Source of the DNA: Oscillospiraceae bacterium
Lineage (GTDB): Bacteria; Bacillota; Clostridia; Oscillospirales; Oscillospiraceae
DNA: 64,000 nucleotides
Assembly: GCA_045628925.1 (NCBI GenBank)
Contig: JAZQQF010000197.1
Span: 758 to 64,757, forward strand
Direction of reading: 5' to 3'
Under the pieces are notes generated by a model. That model had not been told where the DNA came from. It saw only the letters and a program-made list of their open reading frames with translations, and did no database searches. Of the stretch, positions 42,529 to 60,954 are shown piece after piece; position 1 is the first letter of the stretch, and the number at the start of each line of letters is the position of its first letter. A program made the translations under genes and the position numbers.

Positions 42529-42591
42529 TCGCAGTTTCGGGAAGCACGTTTTCCCGACTGCGGGAACGCAGCACAAAAGCAGGAGGCAGAT

Positions 42592-44850: not shown

Positions 44851-44872
44851 TCGGCCGCAAAGACCGAAAATG

Positions 44873-44917
44873 ACCGGCGGTCTCCCCTGAGATACAGGGA
44901 AGGCCGCCGGTTTTGTT
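44873..44917. terminator. hairpin between convergent genes
   Basis: accggcgg / ccgccggt outer stem, followed by tttgtt on the + strand. Confidence 0.45.
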
Positions 44918-44935
44918 ATGGGTTGATTTTGTGTG

Positions 44936-45736
44936 TCAGCGATCAGACGCACCGTCGGCGGTGACGTCCTCTCCCGGAACCAGATACCGGGACAGGACGC
45001 CGCGGACGGCGTCGAATACGGTCAGATCCTTCGGATCCAAATTGTCCTGCGTGATGCGGATCAGCCGGTCTCCGCGCCGGAACTTGCAGGTCTTCGGCGA
45101 TCCGCCCATCATCATCGCGGCGATCCCGCGCCTGCCCTCAAAGCGGTCCAGACCATATTGGTCGATGACCGCGTAGGCCGCCGCCTCCGCATCGGAGGGG
45201 ACGAACCACGTCAGGCGGTTTTCCGGACTCCGGGAGCTTGCCCTGCAGTATTCATCCAGCTGGAGCCTCCCGTCGGGATATCGGCTCAGCACCAGCTCGT
45301 AGGTGGAGCTCATCCCCACGGCCTCGTTCGCGGGCGTCGTGCCGAAATAGCAGTCCACCAGCAGCTCATTGCCTTCTCCGGGCCTGGGCATACCGGAATT
45401 GCGGGCCGGCTCGTCCTGTGCCGGAGCGGGGTTGAGGTCGGGAAAAGCCTTCCGGGCCTGTTCACCGTCCATGAATAATCCGGGGATGGGGCTGAACATT
45501 GTGGCGGCGCTCAGACCGATATTCTGCGGCTGGGACGGCAGCGGCTTCGCGGTCAGATCCCGAAGCGGTGCGCCGCAGTTCATACAGAATTTCTGATCCG
45601 GCTGAACGGGTTCCCCGCAGCCGGGGCAGAATTTCTGCTTTGGCAGGACAGATTCCCCACAGCTGGTGCAGAATTTCTGATTCGGCAGAATGGGTTCCCC
45701 GCAGCGGGGGCAAACGGATACTGCGTTTTCGTTCAT
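44936..45736 (-). CDS. triple zinc-ribbon protein with unknown C-terminal domain
   Basis: N-terminus CPRCGEPILPNQKFCTSCGESVLPKQKFCPGCGEPVQPDQKFCMNCG (three consecutive ribbons), a Pro-rich linker and a ~150-aa globular C-terminal domain. Confidence 0.7.
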   Translation of the reverse strand: MNENAVSVCPRCGEPILPNQKFCTSCGESVLPKQKFCPGCGEPVQPDQKFCMNCGAPLRDLTAKPLPSQPQNIGLSAATMFSPIPGLFMDGEQARKAFPDLNPAPAQDEPARNSGMPRPGEGNELLVDCYFGTTPANEAVGMSSTYELVLSRYPDGRLQLDEYCRASSRSPENRLTWFVPSDAEAAAYAVIDQYGLDRFEGRRGIAAMMMGGSPKTCKFRRGDRLIRITQDNLDPKDLTVFDAVRGVLSRYLVPGEDVTADGASDR

Positions 45737-46636: not shown

Positions 46637-46665
46637 TTGACAAATTCGAGATGAGCTTGTATAAT
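46637..46665 (+). promoter_or_regulatory. consensus sigma-A promoter (TTGACA-17-TATAAT) at the head of the lipid cluster
   Basis: ttgaca at 46637-46642, exactly 17 nt of spacer, tataat at 46660-46665. It sits in an AT-rich stretch ~140 nt upstream of the ATG at 46805. Confidence 0.6.
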
Positions 46666-46804
46666 TACAGTTAAATAGTGCAATAAAGTGCGAAGCGCCG
46701 GAGAATATACTTTCCGGAGTGCGGCTTTCGGGCCGCAGCGGATAAAGGAAACCGGGAAACGCAGAGAAACCGATAGAAATTCGTTAGATGGGATACAGGC
46801 AGAT

Positions 46805-48754
46805 ATGAAGATCGAGACCCTGGGACCGTATAAAACACTGAATTCGTTTGTGTCGGCCAAGATAAACCGGTTCAATTCCGCGGAGCACAGTTTCCGCGCC
46901 ATGTTTGAACTGATGTTTTCCGAGAAGGAAAACGTGATCTATGAAAAGAGCAGCGGGTATCAGATCGAGTATACGAAATACGGCGAAGCCTGCGATCAGA
47001 CAAGCGAATGCGCGGCGCATCTTCGATTCCTGCTGAAACGTCTCCCGGATGATTCCATCGTCGGATTGTATATGAAAAATGACATCAGCTGGATCATTGC
47101 ATTCTGGGCGATCCTGAAAAGCGGGCACAGGCCGCTTCTGCTGAATACAAGACTGGGCGACGATATCATCAATCTGGTCATGCGCAATGCCGGCGCATCC
47201 GCAGTGATCACGGACGGAAAGACGTTCCCCGAGTTTGAGACCATTCCGTATGCGGATATCCGGCTGTCCGATCGCTGCGAACAGGCAGCGGAGCAGTTCG
47301 GTTCCGAGGTGCTTGTGATGTCCTCCGGCACGACAGCGCTCCCGAAGATCTGCGCATATTCCGCCGAGGAATTCTATTACCAGATCAACGACAGTTTTCA
47401 TATTATCTGTGAATGCAGACAGATCAAGAAACACTATGACGGTCAGCTGAAACTGCTGACATTTTTGCCGTTTTATCATGTTTTCGGGCTGATCGCCGTA
47501 TATATCTGGTTCGCGTTTTTTTCCAGAACGTTTGTCCATCTGAGCGATCTCGCACCGCAGACGATCATCAACACCATCCGGCGGCACAAGGTGACACATA
47601 TTTTCGCCGTTCCGATGTTCTGGAATGAAGTATATAAACAATCCGTAAAGACGATCAAAGGCCGCGGGGAGGAGACGTATCACCGGTTTTTGAAGGGCAT
47701 GGACATCGCGGAAAAGCTCCAGCTGGTACCCGTGCTGGGTTCCGCGTTTATCCGTCTGGCATTCCGGGAGGTCCGGGAGAACCTGTTCGGGGACAGCATC
47801 TGTTTTCTGATCACCGGCGGAAGCGAGATCCAGAGCGAGGTCCTTTCCTTTTTCAACCTGATCGGCTACCATCTTGCAAACGGATACGGCATGACGGAGA
47901 TCGGCATCACATCCGTTGAACTCAGCACGAAAAGAAATCTGCGGAACGCGGGCTATGTGGGAAAACCGTTCTCCTCCATCGAGTATCGGATCTCACCGGA
48001 CGGCTGCCTTCAGGTGAGCGGCAGGTCGACCGCCAGATATATCATGGAGGGCGAGAGAAAGAAAGCGCGTGACGAATGGTTTGACACGGGCGATATTGCG
48101 GAATGTGTCAACGGGCATTATCGGATCCTTGGCCGCAGAGATGACGTTGTGATATCCGAAAGCGGAGAAAACCTGAATCCGTTCCTGATCGAGCCGCTGC
48201 TTGCGGACGATCCGAATTATCAGATCTGCCTCATCGGGCACACGGAAAACAGACAGATCGTGCCGACGCTGCTTGTGTTTGCGGGCCGTCACGTGAGTGC
48301 GGAGAAGTACAGAAACGTCCGCCGGAATATCGAAAAGAAACTGCAGGACAACAGATTATCGACCCGGATCTCGAATATCGTATTTGTGCAGGAACCGCTG
48401 ATATCGCCGGATGACATCAAGATCAACCGTGCCCGGCTGAGAAAGCAGTATGATGAAAACGCGCTCAGCCTCCTGAATCCCGAACGGATCACAGACCGGG
48501 GCGCGGAGGACGATCCGGTCTATAACTATGTCAGAGAGCTGTTTGCCGCTGCGTTCGGCAAACCGGCAGGCGAATTCGGACCGGACACGGATTTCTTCCT
48601 GGATGAAGGCGGCAGCAGTCTGGACTATTTCGCGCTCATCTCCAAGATCCAGGAGGATCATGATATCCGATTCCCCGCATCGCAGGAGAAGACGATCTCT
48701 ACCATAGCGGAACTGAGCGCGTTTATTGAGGACGAACACAATCATGTGGGTTAA
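46805..48754 (+). CDS. adenylate-forming enzyme fused to a PCP-type carrier domain (A-T didomain, NRPS-like/fatty acyl-AMP ligase-like)
   Basis: AMP-binding motifs LVMSSGTTALPK, GYGMTE and WFDTGDIA..GRRDDVVISESGENLNP. The C-terminal carrier motif is DFFLDEGGSSLDYFALI. The start at 46805 was chosen over the GTG at 46688, which would lie almost at the predicted TSS. Confidence 0.85.
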   Translation: MKIETLGPYKTLNSFVSAKINRFNSAEHSFRAMFELMFSEKENVIYEKSSGYQIEYTKYGEACDQTSECAAHLRFLLKRLPDDSIVGLYMKNDISWIIAFWAILKSGHRPLLLNTRLGDDIINLVMRNAGASAVITDGKTFPEFETIPYADIRLSDRCEQAAEQFGSEVLVMSSGTTALPKICAYSAEEFYYQINDSFHIICECRQIKKHYDGQLKLLTFLPFYHVFGLIAVYIWFAFFSRTFVHLSDLAPQTIINTIRRHKVTHIFAVPMFWNEVYKQSVKTIKGRGEETYHRFLKGMDIAEKLQLVPVLGSAFIRLAFREVRENLFGDSICFLITGGSEIQSEVLSFFNLIGYHLANGYGMTEIGITSVELSTKRNLRNAGYVGKPFSSIEYRISPDGCLQVSGRSTARYIMEGERKKARDEWFDTGDIAECVNGHYRILGRRDDVVISESGENLNPFLIEPLLADDPNYQICLIGHTENRQIVPTLLVFAGRHVSAEKYRNVRRNIEKKLQDNRLSTRISNIVFVQEPLISPDDIKINRARLRKQYDENALSLLNPERITDRGAEDDPVYNYVRELFAAAFGKPAGEFGPDTDFFLDEGGSSLDYFALISKIQEDHDIRFPASQEKTISTIAELSAFIEDEHNHVG

Positions 48755-49379
48755 ATTTGTCAACGCCTTTACAAAGATCACCGGCTGGCCGGTCCAGTTC
48801 CTCTGCTTTCGCACGAAGGTGTATTACGAAGATCCGGCGATCCAGAGGAGAAAGCTGTCGGGGCCCGCGATCATCGTATCAAATCATACTTCGGTCTTTG
48901 ACTACGCAGTCTATCTGTTCGTATTCCTTTTTCGGACCCTCCGCTTTCAGATGGCGGAGGTCCTGTTCGAGAAAAAACCGCTGGGGCTGCTGCTGAAGGG
49001 ACTCGGCGGGATCCGGGTGAACCGATACTCACATGATCTGGGGTTCGTTACAAAATCGGAGGAGATCCTTCGCGGCGGCGGCGTGGTGGGCATTTTTCCG
49101 GAAGGCCGTCTGCCTAAGCCGGAGGAAGCGCGGCCGCTGCCGTTTTCTCCCAGCGTCGCGTATCTGGCGCTGTCCACAAAAGCGCCGATCATCCCCGTCT
49201 ATACGAACGGATCCTATTTCAACCGAAAAAGAGCGCGCGTGCTGATCGGCTGCCCGATGCACGCTTCACAGTTTCTGGACCCGGATATGACGGAAAAAGA
49301 GAACCTTGCGTATGTTACGGAGCGGATCAGAGACCGCATCATCGAACTGGGGAAAAAACTGGATGAAAAAGTCAAATAA
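48744..49379 (+). CDS. PlsC/LPLAT-family acyltransferase 1
   Basis: HX4D motif NHTSVFD, plus GGIRVNR and FPEGRLP blocks. The ATG at 48744 overlaps the upstream stop by 11 nt. Confidence 0.8.
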   Translation: MWVKFVNAFTKITGWPVQFLCFRTKVYYEDPAIQRRKLSGPAIIVSNHTSVFDYAVYLFVFLFRTLRFQMAEVLFEKKPLGLLLKGLGGIRVNRYSHDLGFVTKSEEILRGGGVVGIFPEGRLPKPEEARPLPFSPSVAYLALSTKAPIIPVYTNGSYFNRKRARVLIGCPMHASQFLDPDMTEKENLAYVTERIRDRIIELGKKLDEKVK

Positions 49380-50010
49380 AAGCCGGCTGTTTTCCATGAA
49401 ATATCTCTTTCACGATTTTGTGAAGCTGACAGCCATGCTCCCGGGCCTGATCGCCTTCCGGCCGAGGATCCTGTTTGAAAATGAGGCGGCGAGAAAACCG
49501 ATCCGGAATGCGGCGCTCCTGATCGGGAATCATGCAGGTTATTTTGACCCGGTATATATGCAGTTCGCCGTCTGGTACAGACGGCATCATTTCATCTGCA
49601 CGAAGGAGTTCTTTGAAGGGAAGAAGAGATTCTTCTTCAAGAACTTTCTCTGTATTCCCATTGACCGGGACAATTTCGGCATTGATTCCTTCCGGGAGAT
49701 CGTCTCGCACCTGAAGCAGGGCGAGCTTGTGAGTATGTTTCCGGAGGGGAAGATCGAGAACGGGCTGAAATCCTTCAAATCCGGGATGATCCTGATGGCC
49801 TTGCAGAGCGGGGCGCCGATCGTGCCCATGTATATCAGGAGCCAGAAAAAATGGACGGAACGCCTGACCATGGCGATCGGCGAACCGATCGATGTCTCGA
49901 ACGGCAGCGGCGCAAGACCGAGTATGTCTCAGATCAAAGAAGCGGCGGAGAGGCTGCACCAGAAAGAGATGCAGCTGCGGGAACTATGTGAAAGGGGTAA
50001 GAAAGGATGA
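49363..50010 (+). CDS. PlsC/LPLAT-family acyltransferase 2
   Basis: HX4D motif NHAGYFD, plus CIPIDRD and FPEGKI blocks. The ATG at 49363 overlaps the upstream gene by 17 nt. Confidence 0.8.
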   Translation: MKKSNKSRLFSMKYLFHDFVKLTAMLPGLIAFRPRILFENEAARKPIRNAALLIGNHAGYFDPVYMQFAVWYRRHHFICTKEFFEGKKRFFFKNFLCIPIDRDNFGIDSFREIVSHLKQGELVSMFPEGKIENGLKSFKSGMILMALQSGAPIVPMYIRSQKKWTERLTMAIGEPIDVSNGSGARPSMSQIKEAAERLHQKEMQLRELCERGKKG

Positions 50011-51521
50011 AAACGCAATCTGCAGAAGTCTTTTCCGGATATACAGACGCCGAAACCTTTGAAAAGATCGTCAATTATCCGTCTGTGAGCGCGATGTGGG
50101 AGCATTGCATTGCGGAATACGGAGCATTGCCCGCGGTCTGCGACGGCGAAAAGACATATACTTACGAAGAAACGGAAGCTGCGGTCTCCGGATTCAGAAC
50201 GGTCCTCAGAAATGCGCATCGGGATCCCGCGAAGCGGATCGGGATCTACGCGGCGAGTTCCTTCGATTTTGTGAAAGCCTTTCTCGCGGTGACGACGCTG
50301 GGGTATACCGCGGTGATCCTTCCGACACAGCTGGACGCGGGGACCGTGTTCGGGTGCTGCATGAAGTTCAATATCGGAACGCTGGTCTATCAGCCGGAGC
50401 TGGAACAGAACACCGACATTGCGGCGCAGCGGTGCGGCGGTCTTGCACGGATACGGACGGATGAGAGCAGCGAGGCGCACACACCGCTCGTCCCCTGCGA
50501 AGCGGCGGCCCCCTGCGTCATCATGTTCACGGGCGGTACGACCGGACGGAGCAAGGGCGCGCTGCTGTCAAACGGGGCGGTGATGCAGGGCGTCGTGAAC
50601 GGCTGCTACGGATATCAGGATGTTTTTTATCAGAGATATATGCTGGTCCTTCCGCTTTCGCACGTATTCGGCCTGATCCGCAATCTGCTCACGTCTCTGT
50701 ATACCGGCAGCTCCATCTTTATCTGCCGCAACACCAAGGATATGTTCCGGGATATGGCCGCCTTCCGCCCGACCATCTGGGTGGTCGTTCCCGCGCTGGC
50801 GGAAATGGCGCTGACACTGTCCAAAAAGTTCGGCAGAAATATGCTGGGCGCGGATATGAAATACATCATCTGCGGCGCGGCTGCCGTGTCGCCGTATCTG
50901 GTGCGGGAGTATCAGGCGTTCGGCATTTCCCTGTTTCCCGGATACGGTCTGACGGAATCCGCGAATCTCGTTTCCGGCAACCCGGAATCGTCGCGGAAGC
51001 CGGATTCGGTGGGGATCCTGTATCCGAATCAGGAATATCAGATCGTCGACGGAGAGCTGTGGCTCCGGGGCGCGAATATGCTGGACGCCTATGTGGGAGA
51101 AGCGGAAGAAGCATATACGGACGGGTGGTTCCGCACCGGAGACCTTGCCAGAGTGGACGAAGAGGGGTATCTGTACATTACCGGGCGGATCAAGGAGATC
51201 ATCGTACTGTCCAACGGTGAGAACATCTCGCCGGCAGAGGTGGAAGCCAGATTCAACGAGCTGCCCTTTGTGCAGGATTCACAGGTGTTTGAGGATGTGA
51301 GCGAGAGCGGCACGCATTTCCTCGCGCTGGAGATCGTTCCCCGGGCGACGGAACTGAAGAAGATCCAGACGGAGGACCCGCAGGGGTATATGATGGCGGA
51401 GCTGGAAAAGGTCAATCGGCAGCTTCCGGGCTATGAACGCGTCAACAGGATCGTGATCCGGGATTCGGATTTTGACAGAACACCAAGTATGAAGATTGTG
51501 AGATATCAGAAATGCAACTGA
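50007..51521 (+). CDS. AMP-dependent synthetase/ligase (acyl-CoA or acyl-carrier-protein ligase)
   Basis: Motifs FTGGTTGRSKGA, GYGLTES and WFRTGDLA..GRIKEIIVLSNGENISP, with a terminal Lys region SMKIVR. ATGA start/stop overlap at 50007. Confidence 0.9.
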   Translation: MKTQSAEVFSGYTDAETFEKIVNYPSVSAMWEHCIAEYGALPAVCDGEKTYTYEETEAAVSGFRTVLRNAHRDPAKRIGIYAASSFDFVKAFLAVTTLGYTAVILPTQLDAGTVFGCCMKFNIGTLVYQPELEQNTDIAAQRCGGLARIRTDESSEAHTPLVPCEAAAPCVIMFTGGTTGRSKGALLSNGAVMQGVVNGCYGYQDVFYQRYMLVLPLSHVFGLIRNLLTSLYTGSSIFICRNTKDMFRDMAAFRPTIWVVVPALAEMALTLSKKFGRNMLGADMKYIICGAAAVSPYLVREYQAFGISLFPGYGLTESANLVSGNPESSRKPDSVGILYPNQEYQIVDGELWLRGANMLDAYVGEAEEAYTDGWFRTGDLARVDEEGYLYITGRIKEIIVLSNGENISPAEVEARFNELPFVQDSQVFEDVSESGTHFLALEIVPRATELKKIQTEDPQGYMMAELEKVNRQLPGYERVNRIVIRDSDFDRTPSMKIVRYQKCN

Positions 51522-51769
51522 ACAGAATTGAAATATTCGAACGGCTGAAGGACATCCTTCTGCTTTCGGATGATCAGAATCAGGCGGCGATCGCGGCCTG
51601 CAGCGAAGACAGCGGGCTGATCACGGATCTGGGCCTGTCCTCTGTCGGAATGCTGTATGTCGTCATTGCCGCGGAAGAGACATTCGACATCCGCTTTGAA
51701 AATGTCGGCATGGCAGATTTTGAAACGGTGAAAGACGTGATCGATTACATAGAGGCAAGACTGAAATGA
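51512..51769 (+). CDS. acyl carrier protein (stand-alone, 85 aa)
   Basis: ACP-type attachment motif DLGLSSVGMLYVV and helix III EETFDIRF. It overlaps the ligase gene by 10 nt. Confidence 0.8.
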   Translation: MQLNRIEIFERLKDILLLSDDQNQAAIAACSEDSGLITDLGLSSVGMLYVVIAAEETFDIRFENVGMADFETVKDVIDYIEARLK

Positions 51770-52812
51770 AGTGGTGGCCGGACGTATGCTGCCCGGGCGA
51801 TATGGTCAGAGCCAGCATCGGCTCGGTGAAACACTACGGTGTTTTCATCAGCGAACAGGAGATCATCCAGTTCGGCCCTCCGCCGATCGCACGGACCGCG
51901 ATCGATGACAGCAGCATCTGCGTCTGCGCTGCGACAGCGGAAGCGTTTTCCTGCGGGTATATCATCGAAAAGGCGATCCTGGATAAAAGCGAGAAGCGCA
52001 GACGTCTGCCCCCGCAGAAAACGATCGAGATCGCACGTTCGCGCATGGGAGAGACCGGGTATAATCTGCTCCATAATAACTGCGAACACTTCGCCTATGA
52101 GTGCGTGTTCGGCATCAAAAAAAGCACGCAGGAGGACGAGGCCCGGGAACGGTGGAACAGCCGGCCGGTCATGGACGTATATCTGGCGCCGCTTCCGGAC
52201 GAGGTGGCGGATCAGCACTTCCTGTGCAAGGAGCGGGAGGAGGAGATCCGGAACACCGCAAATGAGAAGCTGAGGATGTGCCGGCTTTTTGACTGGCAGG
52301 TCCTGCTGTATGCGGCAAACCGCTCGTTCGGGCTGAAAGAAAGCGATCTCACGTTTCAGAAAACGTCCGCCGGGAAATGGAAGTGCGACCGGTTCTGGTT
52401 TTCCCTGTCGCATACGGACGGCGCCGTCCTTGTGGGGGTGTCCAACGAAAAGATCGGCGTGGATATCGAGAACACGGCTTCATGGGAACGGAAACCGTAT
52501 GCGGATCCCGCTACCGAAAAAAAGCTGCGCAGGAGGATCTGCACTTCCGGGGAGGCGGCCTCCGGGGAGCCGGACCTCATGCACCTCTGGACGCTGAAGG
52601 AAAGCATCTTCAAATGCTATGGCCGCTCGTTTATTCCGACGAGGATCGACACGGATAAATACCGCGCAGAGACCTTTCAGATCTCGGCGTTCCCTGAAAT
52701 GCTGATGGCGGTGTGCGGTGAGCAGCTGGATCATGTCCGGTTCTATCAGTTTGACGATGGTCATGCGCGATCCGTCCATTCGGAAATGATCAGAAACGGA
52801 AAGCGCCAATGA
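51766..52812 (+). CDS. fusion protein: LRAT/PLAAT-like (NlpC/P60 superfamily) acyltransferase domain + Sfp-type 4'-phosphopantetheinyl transferase
   Basis: The N-terminal half has KHYGVFIS (His box) and LLHNNCEHFAYECVFG (the NCEHF catalytic Cys motif of LRAT/H-RAS-like suppressor enzymes). The C-terminal half has FSLSHTDG, IGVDIEN and LWTLKESIFKCYG (PPTase motifs). ATGA overlap at 51766. Confidence 0.8.
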   Translation: MKWWPDVCCPGDMVRASIGSVKHYGVFISEQEIIQFGPPPIARTAIDDSSICVCAATAEAFSCGYIIEKAILDKSEKRRRLPPQKTIEIARSRMGETGYNLLHNNCEHFAYECVFGIKKSTQEDEARERWNSRPVMDVYLAPLPDEVADQHFLCKEREEEIRNTANEKLRMCRLFDWQVLLYAANRSFGLKESDLTFQKTSAGKWKCDRFWFSLSHTDGAVLVGVSNEKIGVDIENTASWERKPYADPATEKKLRRRICTSGEAASGEPDLMHLWTLKESIFKCYGRSFIPTRIDTDKYRAETFQISAFPEMLMAVCGEQLDHVRFYQFDDGHARSVHSEMIRNGKRQ

Positions 52813-53732
52813 CATGGATCTATTGTCTGCTGATCGCTGTATCGGCGTATGTCATCTTTATTGCGGCTCCCGCACTCGTTGCATATCGCTCGGTCTTCTG
52901 CCGGAAGACCGGAGTCCCGTTTGTCGATCGCGACCTGAAGAATTCCTGTCTGGCGCCATATGAGAAACGGATCGCAGCGGATTTCGACTTTTTCCGGCGG
53001 CACGAAAAAGAAAGCGTGTCGATATGCGCGGACGATGGGGTGAAGCTGGTCGGAAGCTATTATTCCGAAGGGAACCGTCGGCTGGCGATCTGCATACACG
53101 GCTATAACTCCACGCCGCTGAACTGCTTCGCGTCATTGGGGCGGTTCCTGCTTTCAGCCGGATACGATGTTCTGATGCCCGACCAGCGGGCGCACGGAGA
53201 AAGCGGCGGGAAACATTCCACGCTCGGACTTACCGAGCAATATGACGTGCTTTCGTGGATCGGCTGGGCAGACGGCCTTGCGGAAGTGGAGGAGGTCATC
53301 CTGGTCGGGGTGTCCATGGGCTGCGCGTCAGTCGCCTATGCTTCCGATAAGATCAGAAGCCCGAAGGTGAAGGGGATGATCCTGGACTGCGGTTTTGCTT
53401 CGCCCTACGAGCAGATCAAAACCGATTGTCAGGCGCGCCACGTCCCGTATCCGCTGATCCTGCCGCTCATCAGAGATCACGCGAAACGCAGGCTGAAGAT
53501 CGATATTTCGCAGCAGGTGGGTACCTCTCTGGAGCATACGGCGATCCCTGCGCTGTTCATGCACGGGGGAAAGGATACGACAGTCGATCTTCGGGTGACG
53601 GAGGAGCACTACAGACGCTGCAGCTCGAAAAAAGAATTCTATTTTGCGGAAAACGGGTTCCACGCCAATGCATTTATGACCGGCGGCAAAGAGGCTGAGG
53701 CTGCGGTCTCTTCCTTCCTTGCATCAATATAA
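52809..53732 (+). CDS. membrane-anchored alpha/beta hydrolase 1
   Basis: N-terminal TM segment (WIYCLLIAVSAYVIFIAAPALVAY), nucleophile elbow GVSMG, acid HGGKDTTV and His GFHAN. ATGA overlap at 52809. Confidence 0.8.
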   Translation: MTWIYCLLIAVSAYVIFIAAPALVAYRSVFCRKTGVPFVDRDLKNSCLAPYEKRIAADFDFFRRHEKESVSICADDGVKLVGSYYSEGNRRLAICIHGYNSTPLNCFASLGRFLLSAGYDVLMPDQRAHGESGGKHSTLGLTEQYDVLSWIGWADGLAEVEEVILVGVSMGCASVAYASDKIRSPKVKGMILDCGFASPYEQIKTDCQARHVPYPLILPLIRDHAKRRLKIDISQQVGTSLEHTAIPALFMHGGKDTTVDLRVTEEHYRRCSSKKEFYFAENGFHANAFMTGGKEAEAAVSSFLASI

Positions 53733-53745
53733 TGGAGGCGAGTTT

Positions 53746-54681
53746 ATGCAGAGCTTTGTCATTTTAGCGGATTCGACCTGCGACCTGCCGGGTGAGTTTC
53801 AGGAAAAGTATGAGATCGTCGTGATCCCGGGGCACCTGATCTTTCCGGATAAACGGGACATTCCGGCTTTCCTGTCCTGGGATACCTGCTCCAGAGAAGA
53901 CTTCTATGCGGAGCTGAAAAGCGACCCGAACGGGTTTTCAACGTCGCCGCCCAATATCGCCGAGTATTATCAGGCATTCATGCGGTATGTATCCGAAGGA
54001 TATCCCGTTTTGTGCCTGACGATCTCCAGCGGGATCAGCGGCGCCTATAACTTTGCCTCGGCAGCAAAAAAACAGGTGCTGGAGCACGAGCCGTCCGCCA
54101 GGATCGAGGTCATCGACACGCTGCGCTTCGGACCGGCGATCGGCCTGATGGCGGTCCACGCTGCGATGCTGCGGGAGAGCGGCCGGAGCATGGACGAGAC
54201 AGCGCGGTATCTGGAAGAGAATAAAAACCGTTTTCATCAGGCAGGCTGGCTGGATGATCTGTCCTTTGTCGCCAAAAAGGGGAGACTGACCCACGCGAAG
54301 GCGTTTCTGGGCACGCTGGCCGGCGTGAAGCCCATCGGCGAATTTGACTACAACGGGCTGACAACGGTCATCGGGAAAGCGAAGGGGGCGAAAGCCGCCT
54401 ACGCAGCACTGCTGACCTATATCCGGAAGACCATTCAGGATCCGTCTGAGCAGATCATTTTCATCGCGCAGACGAATCGCCTCGAACAGGCAAAGGAATA
54501 TCAGCGGATGATCGAAGCGGAGATCAGGCCGAAGGCCGTCTTCATCCACGATGTGTATCCTTCCTGCGGCATCAATATCGGACCGGGGCTGATGGCGGCT
54601 TATTATATGGGAACTCCGATCTCGAGCGACCTCGCGGAAGAGCGCGGGATCCTGGAGCTTGCACTGAATGGGGAGAAATAA
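53746..54681 (+). CDS. DegV family fatty-acid-binding protein (FakB-like)
   Basis: The ATG at 53746 has GGAGG 7 nt upstream. The N-terminus FVILADSTCDLP and the SSGISG(A)Y motif are DegV hallmarks. Confidence 0.9.
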   Translation: MQSFVILADSTCDLPGEFQEKYEIVVIPGHLIFPDKRDIPAFLSWDTCSREDFYAELKSDPNGFSTSPPNIAEYYQAFMRYVSEGYPVLCLTISSGISGAYNFASAAKKQVLEHEPSARIEVIDTLRFGPAIGLMAVHAAMLRESGRSMDETARYLEENKNRFHQAGWLDDLSFVAKKGRLTHAKAFLGTLAGVKPIGEFDYNGLTTVIGKAKGAKAAYAALLTYIRKTIQDPSEQIIFIAQTNRLEQAKEYQRMIEAEIRPKAVFIHDVYPSCGINIGPGLMAAYYMGTPISSDLAEERGILELALNGEK

Positions 54682-54684
54682 GAA

Positions 54685-56028
54685 ATGAAACAGATCAAAG
54701 GAAAAGCCGGTATCATCCTGTACGCCCTGTCCGGTATGGGCATCAATATGCTGAATATCATGATGGGGTCCTATCTGTGCAGCGCGCTCCTCATCGGCGG
54801 CTTCGGAAAGGACGTCATTCCGTTCCAGACCTATGCCCAGAGGGATCTGATCGTTCCGGCTGTCTGGGCAGTGTTCTCTCTGGCCGCCAAGATCCTTGAC
54901 GGCATTATCGACATTCCGATGGCCTCTTTTTCCGATCAGCTGAAGACCCGCTGGGGACGTCGGCGTCCGTCCATCCTGATCGGTATGGTCATGACGATCG
55001 TTTCGTATCTGCTGTTCCTTGTGATCCCCGATAAGGGCGGCGTGTCCATCCTGAATACGGTTTACTACGGGATCGTTCTCTGCCTCTTCTATGCGTTTTA
55101 TACGCTGACCATGGTCTCTTTTTATGCCACCTTTACGGAGATCGTTGAGACGACGGAAGACCGCAATCTCCTGTCAAATGCGAAGTCTTTCTTTGATGTC
55201 GTGTATTTCGTCCTGGGTTATGTCGTGGTCAGAATGCTTCTGAACGGGCTCAACGTCCGCACGGTCGCGCTGCTGGTCCTGCCCATTGCCCTCACGATGC
55301 TGATCCCGCTCTTCATGATCAAGGAGAAGTCTACCAAAGAGGGCGCGGAGAGAACGACGGAAACGGTCCATCTGGTGCAGTCGCTGTGCCTGACGTTTAA
55401 GAACAAAAAGTTTATCGTCTGGATGATCACGTATGCGTTTATGACGTTCGGCGTGCAGCTGTTCCTCGGCGGGATCAATGAATATTTCTCATTCGTTGGT
55501 CTGAATATGATCAAGATCATGACGACCACCTTCGCGCCGGTGCCGTTCATGCTGATCTTTTATAACCGCCTGATCAAAAAGCGCGGGTTTGGCTTTGCGT
55601 TTCGGTATGTCCTGCTGATGTATGTGATCGGAATGGTATTTCTGGGGATCGTCGGTCTGCTGGAGCCGGCGCCCGAGAAGGAATGGCTGTCGATCCTGGC
55701 GGGCCTGTGCTGTTCCGTTGCGGTCGGCGCGCTCTTCTCCGTGGCGTATTCGGTCCCTTCGCAGCTTGCCGCAGACGAAGAAAAGGAGACCGGGATCTCC
55801 AACTCCGCCATGTACTTTGCCGTTCAGGGACTCTTTTCCGGCGTGGCTTCGGGCATTGCGACCGGCGTCGTGCTGACGGCACTGAAGGGAAGCGAGACCA
55901 ATCCGACGAACGCCATGCAGTATATGACGTTTGTCGCTGCGGCGGGATGCTTTGCCGCGATCCTCTTCACGTGGCTGCTTCCCAGATCGATCATTACGAT
56001 GGGGCGTCAGGATAAAAAGCAGCATTGA
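54685..56028 (+). CDS. MFS transporter of the glycoside-pentoside-hexuronide (GPH/MFS_2) type
   Basis: 447 aa with ~12 TM segments. GPH signature LDGIIDIPMASFSDQLKTRWGRRRP. Confidence 0.85.
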   Translation: MKQIKGKAGIILYALSGMGINMLNIMMGSYLCSALLIGGFGKDVIPFQTYAQRDLIVPAVWAVFSLAAKILDGIIDIPMASFSDQLKTRWGRRRPSILIGMVMTIVSYLLFLVIPDKGGVSILNTVYYGIVLCLFYAFYTLTMVSFYATFTEIVETTEDRNLLSNAKSFFDVVYFVLGYVVVRMLLNGLNVRTVALLVLPIALTMLIPLFMIKEKSTKEGAERTTETVHLVQSLCLTFKNKKFIVWMITYAFMTFGVQLFLGGINEYFSFVGLNMIKIMTTTFAPVPFMLIFYNRLIKKRGFGFAFRYVLLMYVIGMVFLGIVGLLEPAPEKEWLSILAGLCCSVAVGALFSVAYSVPSQLAADEEKETGISNSAMYFAVQGLFSGVASGIATGVVLTALKGSETNPTNAMQYMTFVAAAGCFAAILFTWLLPRSIITMGRQDKKQH

Positions 56029-56036
56029 GGCACCCG

Positions 56037-57686
56037 ATGAAAACAAAGAAGATCAACGGAACACATTTTGAAAAGATGCTCCAGAACGGGCTTGCCAATC
56101 TGTGCAGGTTCGAGGAGGAGCTGAACAGCCTGAACGTCTTTCCGGTAGCGGACGGGGATACTGGCTCGAATATGCGGGCAACGCTGGCGTATGGCCTTCG
56201 GGAGGCGGCCAGCGCACCCGCGGCGGGCGCCTATCTGAAATCGCTGTCGGAGGCGATGCTTTTCGGCGCGCACGGGAATTCCGGCGTCATTCTGTCGCAG
56301 CTGTTCAGAGGGATCTATCTGGCGCTTTCCAGATGCGGCAATGTAAACCCGGGGGAATTGCGCAATGCCTTTATCATGGGGTATAAAACAGCGTATTCTG
56401 CGGTCGTTCGCCCGGTGGAGGGCACGATCCTCACGGTCGCGCGGGAAGGCATCGAGAATATCCGGAATCAGATCGACCGCGGTTCGACATTTGAGGATCT
56501 GCTCAGTATGTATGTCGCGGAAATGCGGAAAAGCCTTGCGCGTACACCGGATATCCTCCCGCAGCTGAAGGATGCGGGCGTGGTCGACAGCGGCGCTCTT
56601 GGCTATATTATCCTTGTGGAAGGAATGCTGGGCTATCTGTTCGGCGATATCATCCCATCCGATGAGATACCGAAGAAGGAGAAACTGATGCCGGAAACCA
56701 CCCCGGGTGAGGCGCTTTTCAACGAGTACAGTATGTTTGAAGACGGCTATTGCGTGGAATTTGTTCTTCAGCTCATGAAAAGCGGTCAGTATTCACAGCA
56801 CTTTTCCCTGAGCCGGTATATTGCGGATCTGAAGGATTTCGGCAATTCGATCGTCGCGGTGCAGAGCGACAGCCGAGTGAAGGTGCATATCCACACATTC
56901 AAGCCGGGAAAGATCCTGTGGCTGAGTCAGGAATACGGAGAATTCGTTTCCTGCAAGGTGGAAAATATGCAGATCCAGCATAATGCCACGATCCCGGAAG
57001 CGGAAGCCGCAAAAGAGCGGAAGGCCTTTTCGGTCATCTCGGTCTGTGATTGTGCGGCAACGCAGGAACTGTTCAGCGACCTTGGCAGCTCCTCCGTGAT
57101 CTGCGGCGGCAGCAAAATGGATGTTTCCGTTCAGGACTTTATCAATGCGCTGAATACAGAGAATGCGCAGACCACCGTGATCCTGCCAGACAATCCGAAT
57201 CTGCTCCACGTTGCGAAACAGGCAAAGGAGCTTTTCCGGGAAGGCGACGTCGTGATCCTGGAAACGAAGACGATCCCGGAAGGGTATTGCGCGCTGGCCA
57301 TGAGCAATCCGGACGAAACGGATATCGACCGGCGCATTCGGCAGATGCAGTCCGGATTCGAGGGGATCCATACGCTTTCGGCGGCGATCGCCAGCAGGGC
57401 GTATCATACCGATCAGGTGGAGTGCCTGCCGGGAATGCGGATCGCTGTTCTGGACGGCGAAGTCGTCAGCGCCGGGGACGAGGATGTTCAGGTGTTATGC
57501 GAGGGACTGAAACAGATACCGGACATCCGTGAGAAAGAGTCCTGCATCATTTTCCGCGGGGAAAACAGTTCCGAAGCAATGGAGCCGCTCCTGGAGGAAC
57601 GGATCCGCAGCCTTTTCCCGGATCTGGAGATCAGTTTCCTGTATTGCGGCTCGCAGCTGTATCTGTGGTCTGCAGCGATTTCGTAA
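56037..57686 (+). CDS. DAK2 domain fusion protein (second YloV/FakA-like copy)
   Basis: LNVFPVADGDTGSNM Dak2 signature. ~550 aa and collinear with the copy at 7968-9626. ATG at 56037 with GAGG upstream; the TTG at 56025 overlaps the MFS stop. Confidence 0.9.
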   Translation: MKTKKINGTHFEKMLQNGLANLCRFEEELNSLNVFPVADGDTGSNMRATLAYGLREAASAPAAGAYLKSLSEAMLFGAHGNSGVILSQLFRGIYLALSRCGNVNPGELRNAFIMGYKTAYSAVVRPVEGTILTVAREGIENIRNQIDRGSTFEDLLSMYVAEMRKSLARTPDILPQLKDAGVVDSGALGYIILVEGMLGYLFGDIIPSDEIPKKEKLMPETTPGEALFNEYSMFEDGYCVEFVLQLMKSGQYSQHFSLSRYIADLKDFGNSIVAVQSDSRVKVHIHTFKPGKILWLSQEYGEFVSCKVENMQIQHNATIPEAEAAKERKAFSVISVCDCAATQELFSDLGSSSVICGGSKMDVSVQDFINALNTENAQTTVILPDNPNLLHVAKQAKELFREGDVVILETKTIPEGYCALAMSNPDETDIDRRIRQMQSGFEGIHTLSAAIASRAYHTDQVECLPGMRIAVLDGEVVSAGDEDVQVLCEGLKQIPDIREKESCIIFRGENSSEAMEPLLEERIRSLFPDLEISFLYCGSQLYLWSAAIS

Positions 57687-57697
57687 AGGTAGAAAAA

Positions 57698-58645
57698 ATG
57701 AGCATCGAAGGTCTTGTGATAACCATTGTACTATCGGCACTCGTTCTGCTTTTTCTCGCACCGACGATCCTCCTTTCCTACGTTCTGTACCGGATCATCC
57801 TTGTCAGGACCGGTCCGGGAAAGTGGAGCAGGGAATGCAGTATGCCGGACGACGCGGAAAGCAGACAGATGTTCGATATCGGGCTCGAATGGGCGCAGAA
57901 ACATTCCGAATGCAGATCCGGTGTGTCGATCAGCAATGATGGGTTCCGTCTGGAAGGGGAGTACTTCGATTTCGGTTTCGAGAAAGCGGTCATCATCATT
58001 CCGGGCAGAACGGAGTCCTGCCTGTATTCCTATTATTTCGCGGAACCGTTTCTGACCGAGGGCTATAATGTGCTCGTGATCGACAACCGCTCGCATGGAC
58101 TGTCGGAGGGGCGGCGCAGCTCGCTGGGCTTTAAGGAGTACCGGGATATCCTCGCATGGGGCAGGTTCCTGCACAGCGAGAAAGGCGTAACGTCCGTTGT
58201 CCTGCATGGGATCTGCATCGGCGCTTCCACCGCGCTCTTTGCGCTGACCTCCGCGGACTGCCCGTCTTATTTTCGCGGCATGATCGCTGAGGGAATGTAT
58301 ACGACCTTTGCCGAATCCTTCAAAAATCATATGATCGTGGACAAAAGACCGATCTTCCCGTTTTTCATGGCGACAATGCTTCAGATCAGACTGCTGTCCG
58401 GGGCGAACGTTGTATCCGATGGGCCGATCAAACGGATCGATCAGCTGCAGAAGCCGATCCTGTTTTTGCACAGCCGGGAGGATCTGTTCTCCCTTCCGGA
58501 GAAGGCGCAGATCCTGTTCGACAAATGTACATCCCGAAAAACACTGGTCTGGTTTGACAAAGGTGCGCATTCGCGCATCCGCATCAACAATACGGAAGCA
58601 TATGACAATGCGATCTCCTGTTTCCTTCGCAGCGATATCCATTAA
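57698..58645 (+). CDS. membrane-anchored alpha/beta hydrolase 2 (Cys in the nucleophile elbow)
   Basis: N-terminal TM segment (LVITIVLSALVLLFLAPTILLSYVLY). The elbow reads HGICIGAS (G-x-C-x-G). Acid HSREDLF and His GAHSR. Confidence 0.75.
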   Translation: MSIEGLVITIVLSALVLLFLAPTILLSYVLYRIILVRTGPGKWSRECSMPDDAESRQMFDIGLEWAQKHSECRSGVSISNDGFRLEGEYFDFGFEKAVIIIPGRTESCLYSYYFAEPFLTEGYNVLVIDNRSHGLSEGRRSSLGFKEYRDILAWGRFLHSEKGVTSVVLHGICIGASTALFALTSADCPSYFRGMIAEGMYTTFAESFKNHMIVDKRPIFPFFMATMLQIRLLSGANVVSDGPIKRIDQLQKPILFLHSREDLFSLPEKAQILFDKCTSRKTLVWFDKGAHSRIRINNTEAYDNAISCFLRSDIH

Positions 58646-58671
58646 ACCGGTTCAGAAAGGAGGCGCAGTCT

Positions 58672-58917
58672 ATGGAACCGAATCTTCAAAATGAGTATAA
58701 ACCGTTGAGTCCATGGGCATATTGGGGGCTTTCGATCCTTTACACGATCCCGATCGTCGGGTTTATTTTCATGATCGTTTTTTCGATCAGCAAAGCGAAC
58801 ATCAATCGCAGAAACTTTACACGATCTTATTGGTGCTGGTATATTCTAGTCGGAATCGCGGTGCTCATCCTGGCAGTGACCGGCGTTCTGGGAGACCTCA
58901 TATACTATATGTTCTAA
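58672..58917 (+). CDS. small two-TM membrane protein
   Basis: 81 aa. AAAGGAGG RBS. Two hydrophobic helices flank a basic loop (KANINRRNFTR). Confidence 0.55.
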   Translation: MEPNLQNEYKPLSPWAYWGLSILYTIPIVGFIFMIVFSISKANINRRNFTRSYWCWYILVGIAVLILAVTGVLGDLIYYMF

Positions 58918-58938
58918 TGTGTTGTGGGAGGAGACATT

Positions 58939-59316
58939 ATGTTCTGCAAAAACTGTGGAAGCAATGTGGCAGATGGAACGAAATACTGCCCGAGCTGCGG
59001 CACTGCGATGACGGCAGGCCCGTCTCAATATCAGTTCAGCCCCGCTCCGGCGCCGCAAGCCGCTGCCGGAAACCCGGTCCCCGTGCTTGTGTGGGGTATT
59101 ATCGGACTGGCTTTCGCCTGCACGTTCTATCTCAGCATTCTCGGCATCATTTTTTCGGCCGTTGGCAAGAAGAAAGCAAGGGAATACACGGCCGTGTACG
59201 GAACGGCATCTAATCAGGCGCGCATCGGAGGGAAACTTGCGAACGCAGGCATGATCGTCGGCATTATTCTCGCGATTCTGAGCCTGTTCGTTCTGGTCGT
59301 TTTGCTGGCAAGCTGA
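58939..59316 (+). CDS. zinc-ribbon membrane protein
   Basis: ATG at 58939 with GGGAGGAG upstream. MFCKNCGSNVADGTKYCPSCG ribbon, a Pro-rich linker and two TM helices. Confidence 0.6.
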   Translation: MFCKNCGSNVADGTKYCPSCGTAMTAGPSQYQFSPAPAPQAAAGNPVPVLVWGIIGLAFACTFYLSILGIIFSAVGKKKAREYTAVYGTASNQARIGGKLANAGMIVGIILAILSLFVLVVLLAS

Positions 59317-59359
59317 TCGGCAGCAGCCGGTCGATCGAATCTGATTCGGTTTGAGAATG

Positions 59360-59395
59360 AAGTCAGGGAGAGCAATGCGCTTTCCCTGACTTTCT
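59360..59395 (+). terminator. internal terminator-like hairpin within the cluster
   Basis: aagtcaggga / tccctgactt 10-bp stem with a 13-nt loop, followed by tct. Confidence 0.4.
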
Positions 59396-59445
59396 CCGTA
59401 ATGTTTATTTCTGCACTTTTTGGAAAGAATCGGAAGGTGGGCAAT

Positions 59446-60522
59446 ATGACGCACAAGAACAGAAAACAATCACGCGCTTTGACAGCAAAAAGGGTGTTTT
59501 GTATCGTATTGGCGGTTATGGTCGCACTGTCCCTTCTTTCGATGATGGCGTCGGTGATCGTGTTCCGAGCCGTTTTTCAGCGCAGAGACGGGGGACCGTA
59601 TGAACTGAAAATGGCATATTCCGACAGCGACGCGGCAAAGCATCCCCGACAGAGCGTCGAATTCCGCTCCGGGGATCGTACGCTCAGAGGCAATATCTAC
59701 GGAATGGATAACCATTCCGGGATCATTATTCTGGTCAACGGGTTTCACGCAACGACGGACAACCACCTGGCGGAAGCGTTCTTCTTCGCGGATGCGGGAT
59801 GGACCGTGTTCACGTTTGACGGGACCGGCACGGGGAGAAGCGACGGAACGAGCGTGATCGGACTGGAGCAATCGGGAAAAGACGTGCGGGCAGCGATCGA
59901 TTATATTTCGGGCGATGCGCAATTATCGGACAGGCCGATCTTCCTGTACGGACACAGCGCCGGGGGATACGCCGTCTCGACCCTGTGCGACGACGACAGA
60001 GTCCGCGCAACGGTATGTATTTCCGGTTTCAATTCTCCCTGCGAGATCATGGAACACTTCAGCAGGAAGTATGTCGGCTTTTTGGCTGAAGTGAGCTATC
60101 CCTTCCTGCTTGCTTACGACAAGCTGCTGTTCGGGGCGTCCGGGAACGTATCGGCCCGGGAGCATATCCTCAGCGCCGACCGGCCGGTCCTGATCGTTCA
60201 GGGAACGGATGACGAGATCGTGCCGCTGGAACTCAGCATCTATACTGCCTGCAGATCGGACCGCAGCAGCAACATTGAGCTTGCGCTGATCAGCGACGAG
60301 TATCGGAACCGGCATTCGACGATCTGGCTCACGGCGGATGCGGCCAAAGAGCTTGCACAGCTTCAGAGCCATGTGGAAAGCATCGAAACGGACGGCATTT
60401 CCGAAGAAGAGGAAGAACAGCTGGCAGAGAACGCTGCGCTGTCAGATGAGATATTCAGACGGGTCGATACCGAATTTCTGGAATATGTTTCCGCATTTTT
60501 CACGCGGGCGCTGACTCGCTGA
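59446..60522 (+). CDS. membrane-anchored alpha/beta hydrolase 3
   Basis: ATG at 59446. TM segment VFCIVLAVMVALSLLSMMASVIVF, elbow GHSAGG, acid QGTDDEIV and His NRHST. Acidic C-terminal tail. Confidence 0.8.
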   Translation: MTHKNRKQSRALTAKRVFCIVLAVMVALSLLSMMASVIVFRAVFQRRDGGPYELKMAYSDSDAAKHPRQSVEFRSGDRTLRGNIYGMDNHSGIIILVNGFHATTDNHLAEAFFFADAGWTVFTFDGTGTGRSDGTSVIGLEQSGKDVRAAIDYISGDAQLSDRPIFLYGHSAGGYAVSTLCDDDRVRATVCISGFNSPCEIMEHFSRKYVGFLAEVSYPFLLAYDKLLFGASGNVSAREHILSADRPVLIVQGTDDEIVPLELSIYTACRSDRSSNIELALISDEYRNRHSTIWLTADAAKELAQLQSHVESIETDGISEEEEEQLAENAALSDEIFRRVDTEFLEYVSAFFTRALTR

Positions 60523-60555
60523 TGCACGGGAAACCGCACGCGGAAAAGCATGGAA

Positions 60556-60641
60556 AGACCCGGAATACCTGAAAAAACAGGTGCTCCGGGTCTTGCGTTC
60601 CGAGAGAAGAGGCGGGGGCGGGAAAAGCCCCTGCCTCTTCT
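60556..60641 (+). terminator. two consecutive hairpins ending the cluster
   Basis: Hairpin 1 is agacccgga..acctg/caggt..tccgggtct (60556-60593). Hairpin 2 is agaagaggcgggg/cccctgcctcttct (60605-60641). Neither has a strong U-tract. Confidence 0.4.
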
Positions 60642-60775
60642 ATATCTGTCGCTGCCGCTGACAGGAAAAACTTCCGGTAACCTTTTCCGGAAATGCGCCG
60701 TATTTACGACAGACCGGTATCAGCGGGAAATCCGTATTGCATAACAGAGCCTGTAAACGAATTTGCGCATAAAGA

Positions 60776-60805
60776 TTGACATTACCCCCGCGTTTCATGT
60801 ATACT
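60776..60805 (+). promoter_or_regulatory. promoter candidate (TTGACA-18-TATACT)
   Basis: ttgaca at 60776-60781 and tatact at 60800-60805, ~150 nt upstream of the ATG at 60955. Confidence 0.45.
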
Positions 60806-60954
60806 TACCTGATACTGGCAATTCGGTGATCTGCCCTTCGTTCTGAGGCTCGCTTTTCCGAAGGATAAACAGCTCTGTCAGTGCTTTTTCGATCATTTTC
60901 TGACCGGACACGTGTTTCGAGTACGGTCAGGTCATACAGGAGGAGAACAGAAAA

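Follow-up and report, generated by a model that had tools for sequence, protein, structure and literature searches.

An LRAT-phosphopantetheinyl transferase fusion family in a predicted lipid salvage operon of gut and rumen Clostridia

Which acyl groups would be handled by a single bacterial polypeptide that joins a lecithin retinol acyltransferase (LRAT) type domain to a phosphopantetheinyl transferase (PPTase)? The question is raised by a gene, g6, on a contig of an Oscillospiraceae bacterium (assembly GCA_045628925.1, contig JAZQQF010000197.1, positions 758 to 64,757), a stretch of 64,000 nucleotides that is referred to below as the window. The open reading frame at 51766..52812 (+ strand) encodes a single protein of 348 amino acids (aa), composed of an LRAT/PLAAT-type domain and an Sfp-type PPTase. 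The gene is coupled to both of its neighbors: in the ATGA at 51766-51769 the stop codon of an acyl carrier protein (ACP) gene (51767-51769) overlaps the ATG of g6 at 51766, and in the ATGA at 52809-52812 the stop codon of g6 (52810-52812) overlaps the ATG of a hydrolase gene at 52809. The original prediction, made from the letters of the window, had described the same start/stop coupling, was not aware of any other LRAT-PPTase fusion, and proposed acyl groups bound to the carrier as the substrate of the LRAT domain. The literature searched here likewise yielded no report of a protein of this kind. We describe the fusion as a conserved gene family and, on balance, favor its interpretation as a two-domain cytoplasmic enzyme of a fatty-acid and lipid salvage operon, in which the PPTase half would prime the carriers and the LRAT half would exchange acyl groups.

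The two halves of the g6 protein are as follows.

51766..52164, + strand: N-terminal half (aa 1-133), a soluble LRAT/PLAAT-type permuted NlpC/P60 domain by Pfam, PDB and Foldseek comparisons; key residues His23 (51832-51834), Gln35, Cys106 (52081-52083) and a second cysteine, Cys113.
52165..52812, + strand: C-terminal half (aa 134-348 and the stop codon), an Sfp-type (group II) 4'-phosphopantetheinyl transferase; key residues His216, Asp233 (52462-52464), Glu235, Lys278/Glu279 (52597-52602) and Lys283.

Both domain assignments had been made in the original prediction, and the Pfam, PDB sequence and Foldseek matches all agree with them. The motifs quoted there were all located in the translation, namely VKHYGVFIS (aa 21-29), NCEHF (aa 105-109), FSLSHTDG (aa 212-219), IGVDIEN (aa 230-236) and WTLKESIFK (aa 275-283). 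An AlphaFold2 model of the fusion protein, built with 67 homologues, spans both halves (pLDDT 94.3, pTM 0.81), and fold comparison matches its N-terminal half to PLAAT3, thus to the LRAT fold, and its C-terminal half to Sfp. Could the fusion nevertheless be an artefact, either a sequencing or assembly join of two genes or a product of chance motifs? We consider the chance of this negligible. A frameshift, a missed stop codon or a misassembly is excluded by the recurrence of continuous fusions of 327-360 aa in numerous species and independently assembled genomes. A coincidental match of the motifs is ruled out by two Pfam domains above their gathering thresholds and by one high-confidence model that covers both halves. 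No split form, in which a PPTase-only relative stands beside an LRAT gene, was found among the PPTase-only relatives checked, one of which lies on a contig too short to judge.

The architecture had been described as unusual; it is not a one-off, since the protein-database and genome searches revealed a large family in gut and rumen Clostridia. A word-indexed protein search returned 292 relatives. The best 120 of these 292 cover at least 90% of the query, are 38-66% identical to it, and nearly all of them are 320-360 aa long and carry both Pfam domains. The few relatives that bear names are called 'lecithin retinol acyltransferase family protein', an NCBI automatic annotation, or 'phosphopantetheinyl transferase'. 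An exhaustive HMMER scan of 1.84 billion representatives produced 2110 matches at E<=1e-3 and 136 at E<=1e-30; among the top 150 representatives of 50%-identity clusters, roughly 100 align end to end and are full-length fusions. By scanning one genome per GTDB species we confirmed 119 loci, of which 80 were kept for the locus comparisons described below. All 80 belong to Clostridia, including Oscillospiraceae, Christensenellaceae, Acutalibacteraceae, Ruminococcus, Faecousia and others. The loci derive from human, ruminant, horse and rabbit gut samples, nearly all of them as metagenome-assembled genomes. The LRAT-PPTase is a real, conserved gene family of gut and rumen Clostridia.

The N-terminal half scores 52 bits on the Pfam LRAT profile (PF04970, aa 10-116) against a gathering score of 24.3, and its homologues, including stand-alone forms, score 59-72 bits. 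In the PDB sequence search, aa 10-123 match human PLAAT3 and its relatives (E 3e-5), with an alignment that pairs His23 with His23, Gln35 with His35 and Cys106 with Cys113. Foldseek comparison with the PDB retrieved 7ZOM (PLAAT3, TMt 0.78), 4DOT (0.79) and 4DPZ (0.76), the range over PLAAT3, HRASLS2 and PLAAT4 being 0.71-0.79. The permuted catalytic core is present, with the histidine near the N-terminus and the nucleophilic cysteine in the NCEHF helix toward the C-terminus. His23, Cys106 and Cys113 are invariant among the 67 fusions, and the string HNNCEHFA is identical in 80 of 80 loci. Neither a membrane anchor or transmembrane segment (maximum 19-residue hydropathy 1.42) nor a signal peptide was found in the LRAT-PPTase, and the protein is therefore predicted to be cytoplasmic and soluble. 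The same location is demanded by the C-terminal half, since a PPTase has to meet coenzyme A (CoA) and apo-ACP. A role as a cell-wall NlpC/P60 peptidase was considered and rejected, since the topology is permuted, the matching profile is that of LRAT and a signal peptide is lacking.

The C-terminal half scores 31.7 bits on the Pfam ACPS profile (PF01648, aa 230-289) against a gathering score of 25, and aa 150-295 match Sfp in the PDB sequence search (E 9e-4). Its best Foldseek match is the Sfp-PCP complex 4MRT (E 4e-10, TMt 0.62), followed by AASDHPPT, PptT and PptAb; the alignment with 4MRT extends over 217 columns, in agreement with the pseudo-dimeric two-lobe fold of approximately 220 residues in one chain. 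The catalytic, magnesium and CoA motifs are found as FSLSHT, IGVDIE and WTLKESIFK, whose patterns (S)xSH, G-x-D-x-E and (W/F)-x-x-K-E-x-x-x-K we take to correspond to the respective Sfp residues. His216, Asp233, Glu235, Trp275, Lys278, Glu279 and Lys283 are conserved in at least 90% of the 67 fusions. The identity to Sfp is about 21%, and all NCBIfam PPTase equivalogs (AusB, AcpT, EntD, HetI) score far below cutoff, hence the protein does not belong to these named orthologue groups. By these matches, no part of an Sfp-type PPTase is missing from the C-terminal half, and its catalytic set is intact. Both halves look catalytically competent, because their catalytic residues are either invariant or conserved in at least 90% of the fusions.

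The further features of the g6 operon in the window are listed below.

46637..46665, + strand: sigma-70-type promoter-like site TTGACA-17-TATAAT, a 12/12 consensus match about 20 nucleotides (nt) upstream of the annotated GTG of g1.
46688..48754, + strand: g1, an ANL adenylase fused to a PP-binding carrier domain (Pfam AMP-binding 127 bits, PP-binding 41 bits).
48726..49379, + strand: g2, a PlsC/LPLAT-family acyltransferase with an HX4D motif (Pfam Acyltransferase 65 bits).
49306..50010, + strand: g3, a second PlsC/LPLAT-family acyltransferase with HX4D (Pfam 73 bits), which matches Thermotoga maritima PlsC (5KYM).
50007..51521, + strand: g4, a stand-alone ANL acyl ligase (Pfam AMP-binding 173 bits) and candidate acyl-ACP synthetase, overlapping the ACP start.
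51512..51769, + strand: g5, a dedicated acidic ACP by profile matches (85 aa, pI 4.1) with attachment Ser44 in DLGLSS.
52809..53732, + strand: g7, an alpha/beta hydrolase by Pfam (Hydrolase_4 type, GVSMG) with an N-terminal transmembrane anchor from aa 6.
53719..54681, + strand: g8, a DegV-family fatty-acid-binding protein, FakB-like (Pfam DegV 197 bits).
54685..56028, + strand: g9, an MFS_2 (GPH-family) transporter (Pfam MFS_2 103 bits).
56025..57686, + strand: g10, a DAK2-domain fatty acid kinase subunit of the YloV/FakA type (TIGR03599 YloV, 449 bits against a cutoff of 396).
57644..58645, + strand: g11, a transmembrane-anchored (from aa 24) alpha/beta-fold enzyme by Pfam, with a cysteine in the nucleophile elbow (GICIG).
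59401..60522, + strand: g12, a third transmembrane-anchored alpha/beta hydrolase (weak NCBIfam matches), with homologues downstream of g11 in 49 loci.

The key residues of these proteins are strongly conserved. The phosphopantetheine-attachment serine of the g1 carrier domain (Ser644 in GGSS) is invariant in 66/66 homologues and that of the ACP in 79/79, as are the HX4D residues of g2 (His54 and Asp59, 73/73) and g3 (His76 and Asp81, 76/76); the nucleophilic serine of g7 is present in 63 of 64 homologues and the elbow cysteine of g11 in 58 of 60. A cysteine nucleophile in an alpha/beta fold is typical of enzymes with thioester intermediates, such as PHA synthase and dienelactone hydrolase. Since the elbow nucleophile of g11 is a cysteine rather than a serine, this protein may be an acyltransferase rather than a lipase. 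The profile matches are less specific about substrates. The top NCBIfam match of g2 is an acyl-[ACP]--phospholipid O-acyltransferase family and those of g4 are long-chain fatty-acid ligase families, all below cutoff; the PDB sequence matches of both adenylases are generic ANL enzymes (MenE, 4-chlorobenzoate, oxalyl, feruloyl, FadD13) that point to no substrate. The ACP scores about 36 bits on NCBIfam ACP families, below cutoff, and 20.6 bits on Pfam PP-binding against a cutoff of 20.8. The DegV-family protein g8 passes TIGR00762 with 205 bits and scores 113 on the FakB1 equivalog (cutoff 350), and g10 scores 332 on the FakA equivalog (cutoff 975). The transporter g9 had no match in the PDB sequence search, and no Rfam family was found among RNA elements in the window. 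Perfect as it is, the promoter-like site belongs to a class no more numerous in the region than in shuffled sequence. Because it lies only about 20 nt before the GTG, the true start of g1 is probably an internal ATG near 46805.

The gene order g1-g11 is kept across the 80 loci, as determined by tblastn with the window operon proteins; after g11, a Zn-ribbon/DUF4190 membrane protein and the third hydrolase often come next. The ACP gene immediately precedes the LRAT gene in 78 of the 78 loci that have both, mostly with overlapping stop and start codons and otherwise abutting in nearly all cases. Nine loci possess a compact variant that consists only of the adenylase-carrier protein (g1), MFS_2, the two PlsC proteins, the ligase, the ACP and the LRAT-PPTase, with the MFS_2 gene directly after g1. 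In one of them, L033, the operon is flanked by unrelated glutamate dehydrogenase and TatD genes. Since this set stands alone between housekeeping genes, the compact set is the core module. The MFS_2 protein of L033 (5108-6997) is 629 aa long and has an extra C-terminal part of about 160 aa without a Pfam match, as is also the case in the other compact loci.

In the window, the operon genes are packed with overlaps behind the perfect -35/-10 consensus, and the flanking genes are unrelated to lipids. The lipid-themed parts within the operon include FakA/YloV, DegV, the HX4D acyltransferases and the membrane-anchored Hydrolase_4 enzymes, and from these assignments we infer that it probably serves to activate fatty acids and lipids of exogenous origin and to re-esterify them. 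No relevant publication on an operon of this type was found in the literature searched. The operon region (46688-62838) has a G+C content of 0.548 versus 0.596 for the whole window, and a third-position GC of 0.63-0.74 versus 0.75-0.89 in most upstream genes, a difference that horizontal acquisition could explain, as could other constraints on expression. Several other coding regions of the window drew attention. Pfam gave no match at E<=1e-4 for two of them, 35367-39416 (- strand, 1349 aa) and 60955-62838 (+ strand, 627 aa). In the 752-aa protein encoded at 42592-44850 (+ strand), an ADP-ribosylglycohydrolase domain is confined to the last 300 residues and is preceded by a long N-terminal region without a domain call; a 1385-aa open reading frame on the strand opposite to this gene (40795-44952) is most likely a high-GC antisense artefact.

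What would the two halves of g6 do in this operon? The operon needs a PPTase, because both carrier serines are invariant, and it is very probable that the PPTase half primes the operon ACP (g5) and the carrier domain of g1, which it would convert from the apo to the holo form; in lineages without this half, a stand-alone PPTase encoded elsewhere in the genome would take over. The LRAT half would be the indispensable partner, forming an acyl-thioester on Cys106 and moving acyl chains within the pathway. Our tentative proposal, to which we give slightly less than an even chance, is that its partner in this exchange is the ACP translated along with it, whose phosphopantetheine thioester would give up or accept the acyl groups. 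A carrier thioester is favored as the substrate by the predicted cytoplasmic and soluble state of the protein, by the fixed slot of its gene after the ACP gene and by its probably ancestral fusion to an ACP-binding enzyme (see below). There is a precedent in BtrH, a papain-like enzyme whose acyl donor is an ACP (PMC10318531). The most conservative route would lead from acyl-ACP through Cys106 to a lipid, a lysolipid or water as the acceptor, with the two PlsC-type acyltransferases operating alongside. A bolder version of the proposal appears rather unlikely to us: the soluble LRAT domain would be the first LRAT/PLAAT member to act on carrier thioesters, either from acyl-ACP to lipid or from (lyso)phospholipid to holo-ACP without ATP, and the fused PPTase, or its catalytically dead remnant, would serve to recruit the ACP.

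A number of observations weigh against a carrier-bound substrate, the first of which concerns the fate of the PPTase half. The 80 loci were sorted by extending each LRAT match to its stop codon. Intact fusions (327-360 aa) account for about 52 of the 80. In 20 loci a stand-alone LRAT protein of 136-146 aa occupies the same operon slot, for example in the complete genome of Ruminococcus sp. JL13D9 and in the isolate Ruminococcaceae bacterium P7. These stand-alone forms end right after the conserved helix at aa 121-131, the next gene starts within about 130 nt of the LRAT stop codon (usually within less than 35 nt), and no PPTase match was found within +-10 kb. The C-terminal half is decayed in 7 of the 80 loci, with its catalytic residues gone and some copies truncated; the motifs of L007, for instance, read FSLACAEG, GLAVEN and KQSARQ. 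All seven have lost the Pfam ACPS signal and still score 60-65 bits on LRAT. One more locus, L054, holds a short form that ends at the contig edge.

The C-terminal halves of L007 (10001-11047) and L039 (10001-11014) are of PPTase length and possess neither the catalytic His, Asp or Glu nor the Pfam signal. They may be pseudo-PPTases retained for something other than catalysis, for instance to bind the ACP, or domains in the midst of decay. A stand-alone PPTase of 217 aa that shares 45% identity with the fusion's C-terminal half was found directly after groES-groEL on a metagenomic Clostridia-like contig (L082, 5692-6345), in a context unrelated to the operon and without a precomputed Pfam match. 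An enzyme of this groESL-adjacent, housekeeping kind could have donated the domain and could now substitute for it.

In a neighbor-joining tree of the ligase g4, which has no support values, the stand-alone forms fall into about six clades and the decayed forms into about six more, and the deep-branching clade of the compact variant contains fusions only. From the losses in about twelve clades together with the all-fusion deep clade it follows that the fusion is probably ancestral and has been undone repeatedly. The identity to the window protein ranges from 39 to 71% for the LRAT half and from 24 to 51% for the PPTase half. Across the loci the PPTase half thus proves dispensable, whereas none of them has lost the LRAT half. 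With repeated PPTase loss beside an invariant LRAT half, the fusion by itself implies no substrate channelling and is no proof of a shared substrate. We infer that its benefit lies in convenience, the two domains being co-expressed and co-localised, and not in obligatory channelling. The carrier-bound acyl substrate of the original prediction stays plausible, and is weakened by this dispensability.

Further points on the same side come from the comparison of protein distances, from the catalytic residues and from the characterised relatives. In an exploratory mirror-tree analysis, partial correlations of pairwise protein distances were computed over 30 loci for all genes and 41 loci for the core genes, a small sample without correction for phylogeny. 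The expected pairs were recovered, FakB-FakA (g8-g10) with 0.54-0.58 and ligase g4-ACP with 0.39-0.48. For the LRAT half, the partners that emerged were the adenylation part of g1 (0.41-0.57, with a bootstrap 95% interval of 0.28-0.65) and the ligase g4 (0.32-0.38), while its values for the ACP (about -0.05) and for the carrier domain of g1 (about 0) showed no covariation. This pattern fits a shared acyl-chain specificity, the LRAT half supplying or consuming the same fatty acids, and gives no support for a specific ACP-LRAT interface; it only tempers the choice of a carrier substrate. The third catalytic position of the LRAT half is Gln35, replaced by Ala, Glu or Ser in some members, whereas PLAATs and LRAT have a histidine there; the equivalent residue is reported to be non-essential in LRAT and LnsA (PMC13559823). 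Finally, the characterised permuted NlpC/P60 acyltransferases reviewed, LRAT, the PLAATs, LnsA and Tox-Act1, use a glycerophospholipid ester as the donor, not a carrier thioester (PMC13559823, PMC12994826).

These donors suggest the strongest rival to ACP exchange, in which the LRAT half is a PLAAT-like phospholipase A/transacylase that works on ester lipids only and never touches the ACP. It would strip (lyso)phospholipids, either imported ones or those of the membrane, whose fatty acids would be re-activated by the ligases and FakAB and re-esterified by PlsC in a cycle of the Lands type, and the fusion to a PPTase would be a co-expression accident of operon history. We regard it as a real possibility, if a doubtful one. 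The phospholipid ester donors of all characterised relatives speak for it, as do the repeated loss or decay of the PPTase half with retention of the LRAT half, the covariation of the latter, which involves both acyl-activating enzymes but leaves out the ACP, and the presence in the operon of an MFS_2 transporter and membrane-anchored lipase-like hydrolases. However, transmembrane helices, lipid anchors and signal peptides are all absent from the LRAT domain, while the characterised members are membrane-tethered or extracytoplasmic; the constant position of its gene directly behind the ACP gene, mostly with an overlap, also argues against it; and a cytoplasmic phospholipase A facing the cell's own membrane would need tight control, of which none is evident.

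The other rival retains the carrier as the substrate and turns the LRAT half into an editing enzyme, similar to a type II thioesterase, that clears wrong or stalled acyl groups from carriers. Such groups would arise, for example, as acyl-phosphopantetheine when a promiscuous PPTase uses acyl-CoA, so that the fusion of a PPTase with its editor would be logical. The position beside the ACP gene and the fusion itself agree with this role, Cys-His chemistry suits thioester hydrolysis, and the operon has no other obvious carrier-editing enzyme, given that its alpha/beta hydrolases are membrane-anchored. Yet an accessory editor is expected to be dispensable, and the LRAT half is not only never lost but is the best-conserved segment. 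In addition, the type II thioesterases known to date are alpha/beta hydrolases. We therefore consider an editing function improbable.

LRAT and PLAAT proteins are known as membrane-bound lipid remodellers of eukaryotes and, lately, as secreted lipoprotein acylases and toxins of bacteria. Over 100 species of gut and rumen Clostridia, the majority uncultured, share an operon of 7 to 13 genes whose invariant core is an LRAT protein predicted to be soluble and to reside in the cytoplasm. This operon points toward a so far unstudied pathway through which anaerobes abundant in the gut may capture lipids of host or dietary origin and rebuild them. If the LRAT domain does use carrier thioesters, the chemistry of the family would be extended, and in the bolder version of the proposal gut Clostridia would be able to turn lipid from the host or the diet into acyl-ACP at no energy cost. 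The fusion also offers an experimental handle, since one polypeptide holds the predicted activities for holo-ACP formation and for the acyl-transfer step.

Compared with known systems, the N-terminal half is closest to LRAT and PLAAT/HRASLS 1-5, with which it shares the PF04970 fold (TMt 0.76-0.79 to PLAAT3/HRASLS2) and the permuted order of histidine before cysteine. The second cysteine seven residues after the catalytic one recalls C161/C168 of LRAT (PMC3142127). LRAT and the PLAATs carry transmembrane helices (PMC3142127), whereas the present protein is bacterial, predicted to be cytoplasmic and soluble, and without a C-terminal transmembrane helix; it has Gln35 in place of His35, and its LRAT domain, encoded in an operon with an ACP, a ligase and PlsC enzymes, either continues into a PPTase or stops behind a short helix. 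LnsA (the Staphylococcus aureus lipoprotein N-acyltransferase), Lnb/DUF4105 and Tox-Act1 belong to the same permuted superfamily in bacteria and share the His/Cys dyad and acyl-thioester chemistry; the third polar residue of LnsA is likewise non-essential (PMC13559823). In contrast to the present protein, which lacks a signal peptide and presumably stays in the cytoplasm, these enzymes are secreted or periplasmic, act at membrane surfaces and take the sn-1 acyl chain of a phospholipid as the donor (PMC13559823, PMC12994826).

The C-terminal half resembles Sfp and other group II PPTases (PptT, AASDHPPT, PcpS) in its two-lobed fold, in the conserved H/GxDxE/WxxKExxxK motifs and in the carriers encoded alongside. 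It differs from Sfp in its N-terminal LRAT domain, in the low identity already mentioned and in its repeated loss or inactivation within its own family. With respect to the proposed step, arylamine N-acetyltransferases are papain-like cysteine enzymes that pass an acyl group from a thioester to an acceptor. Together with BtrH, a papain-like ACP:aminoglycoside acyltransferase (PMC10318531), they represent cysteine enzymes that transfer acyl groups from carrier or CoA thioesters. Unlike g6, both belong to different papain-like families with a non-permuted topology, and no sequence relationship to them was detected.

The operon as a whole invites comparison with Aas-LplT of Escherichia coli, which re-acylates lysophospholipids, and with FakAB of Gram-positive bacteria, a pathway for exogenous fatty acids, as it combines an MFS transporter, PlsC enzymes, an ANL ligase with an ACP, a FakA-like kinase and a DegV/FakB-like binding protein. 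Aas-family models are the top NCBIfam matches of the operon PlsC proteins, far below cutoff. In contrast to Aas-LplT, the transporter is of the MFS_2/GPH type, and the ligase, the acyltransferases and a dedicated ACP are separate proteins; in contrast to FakAB, the Fak components fall below the NCBIfam equivalog cutoffs. The second adenylase, a didomain with a carrier, and the LRAT-type enzyme are without counterpart in either system. Judging from these matches, the operon partly resembles Aas-LplT and FakAB and appears to be a member of neither.

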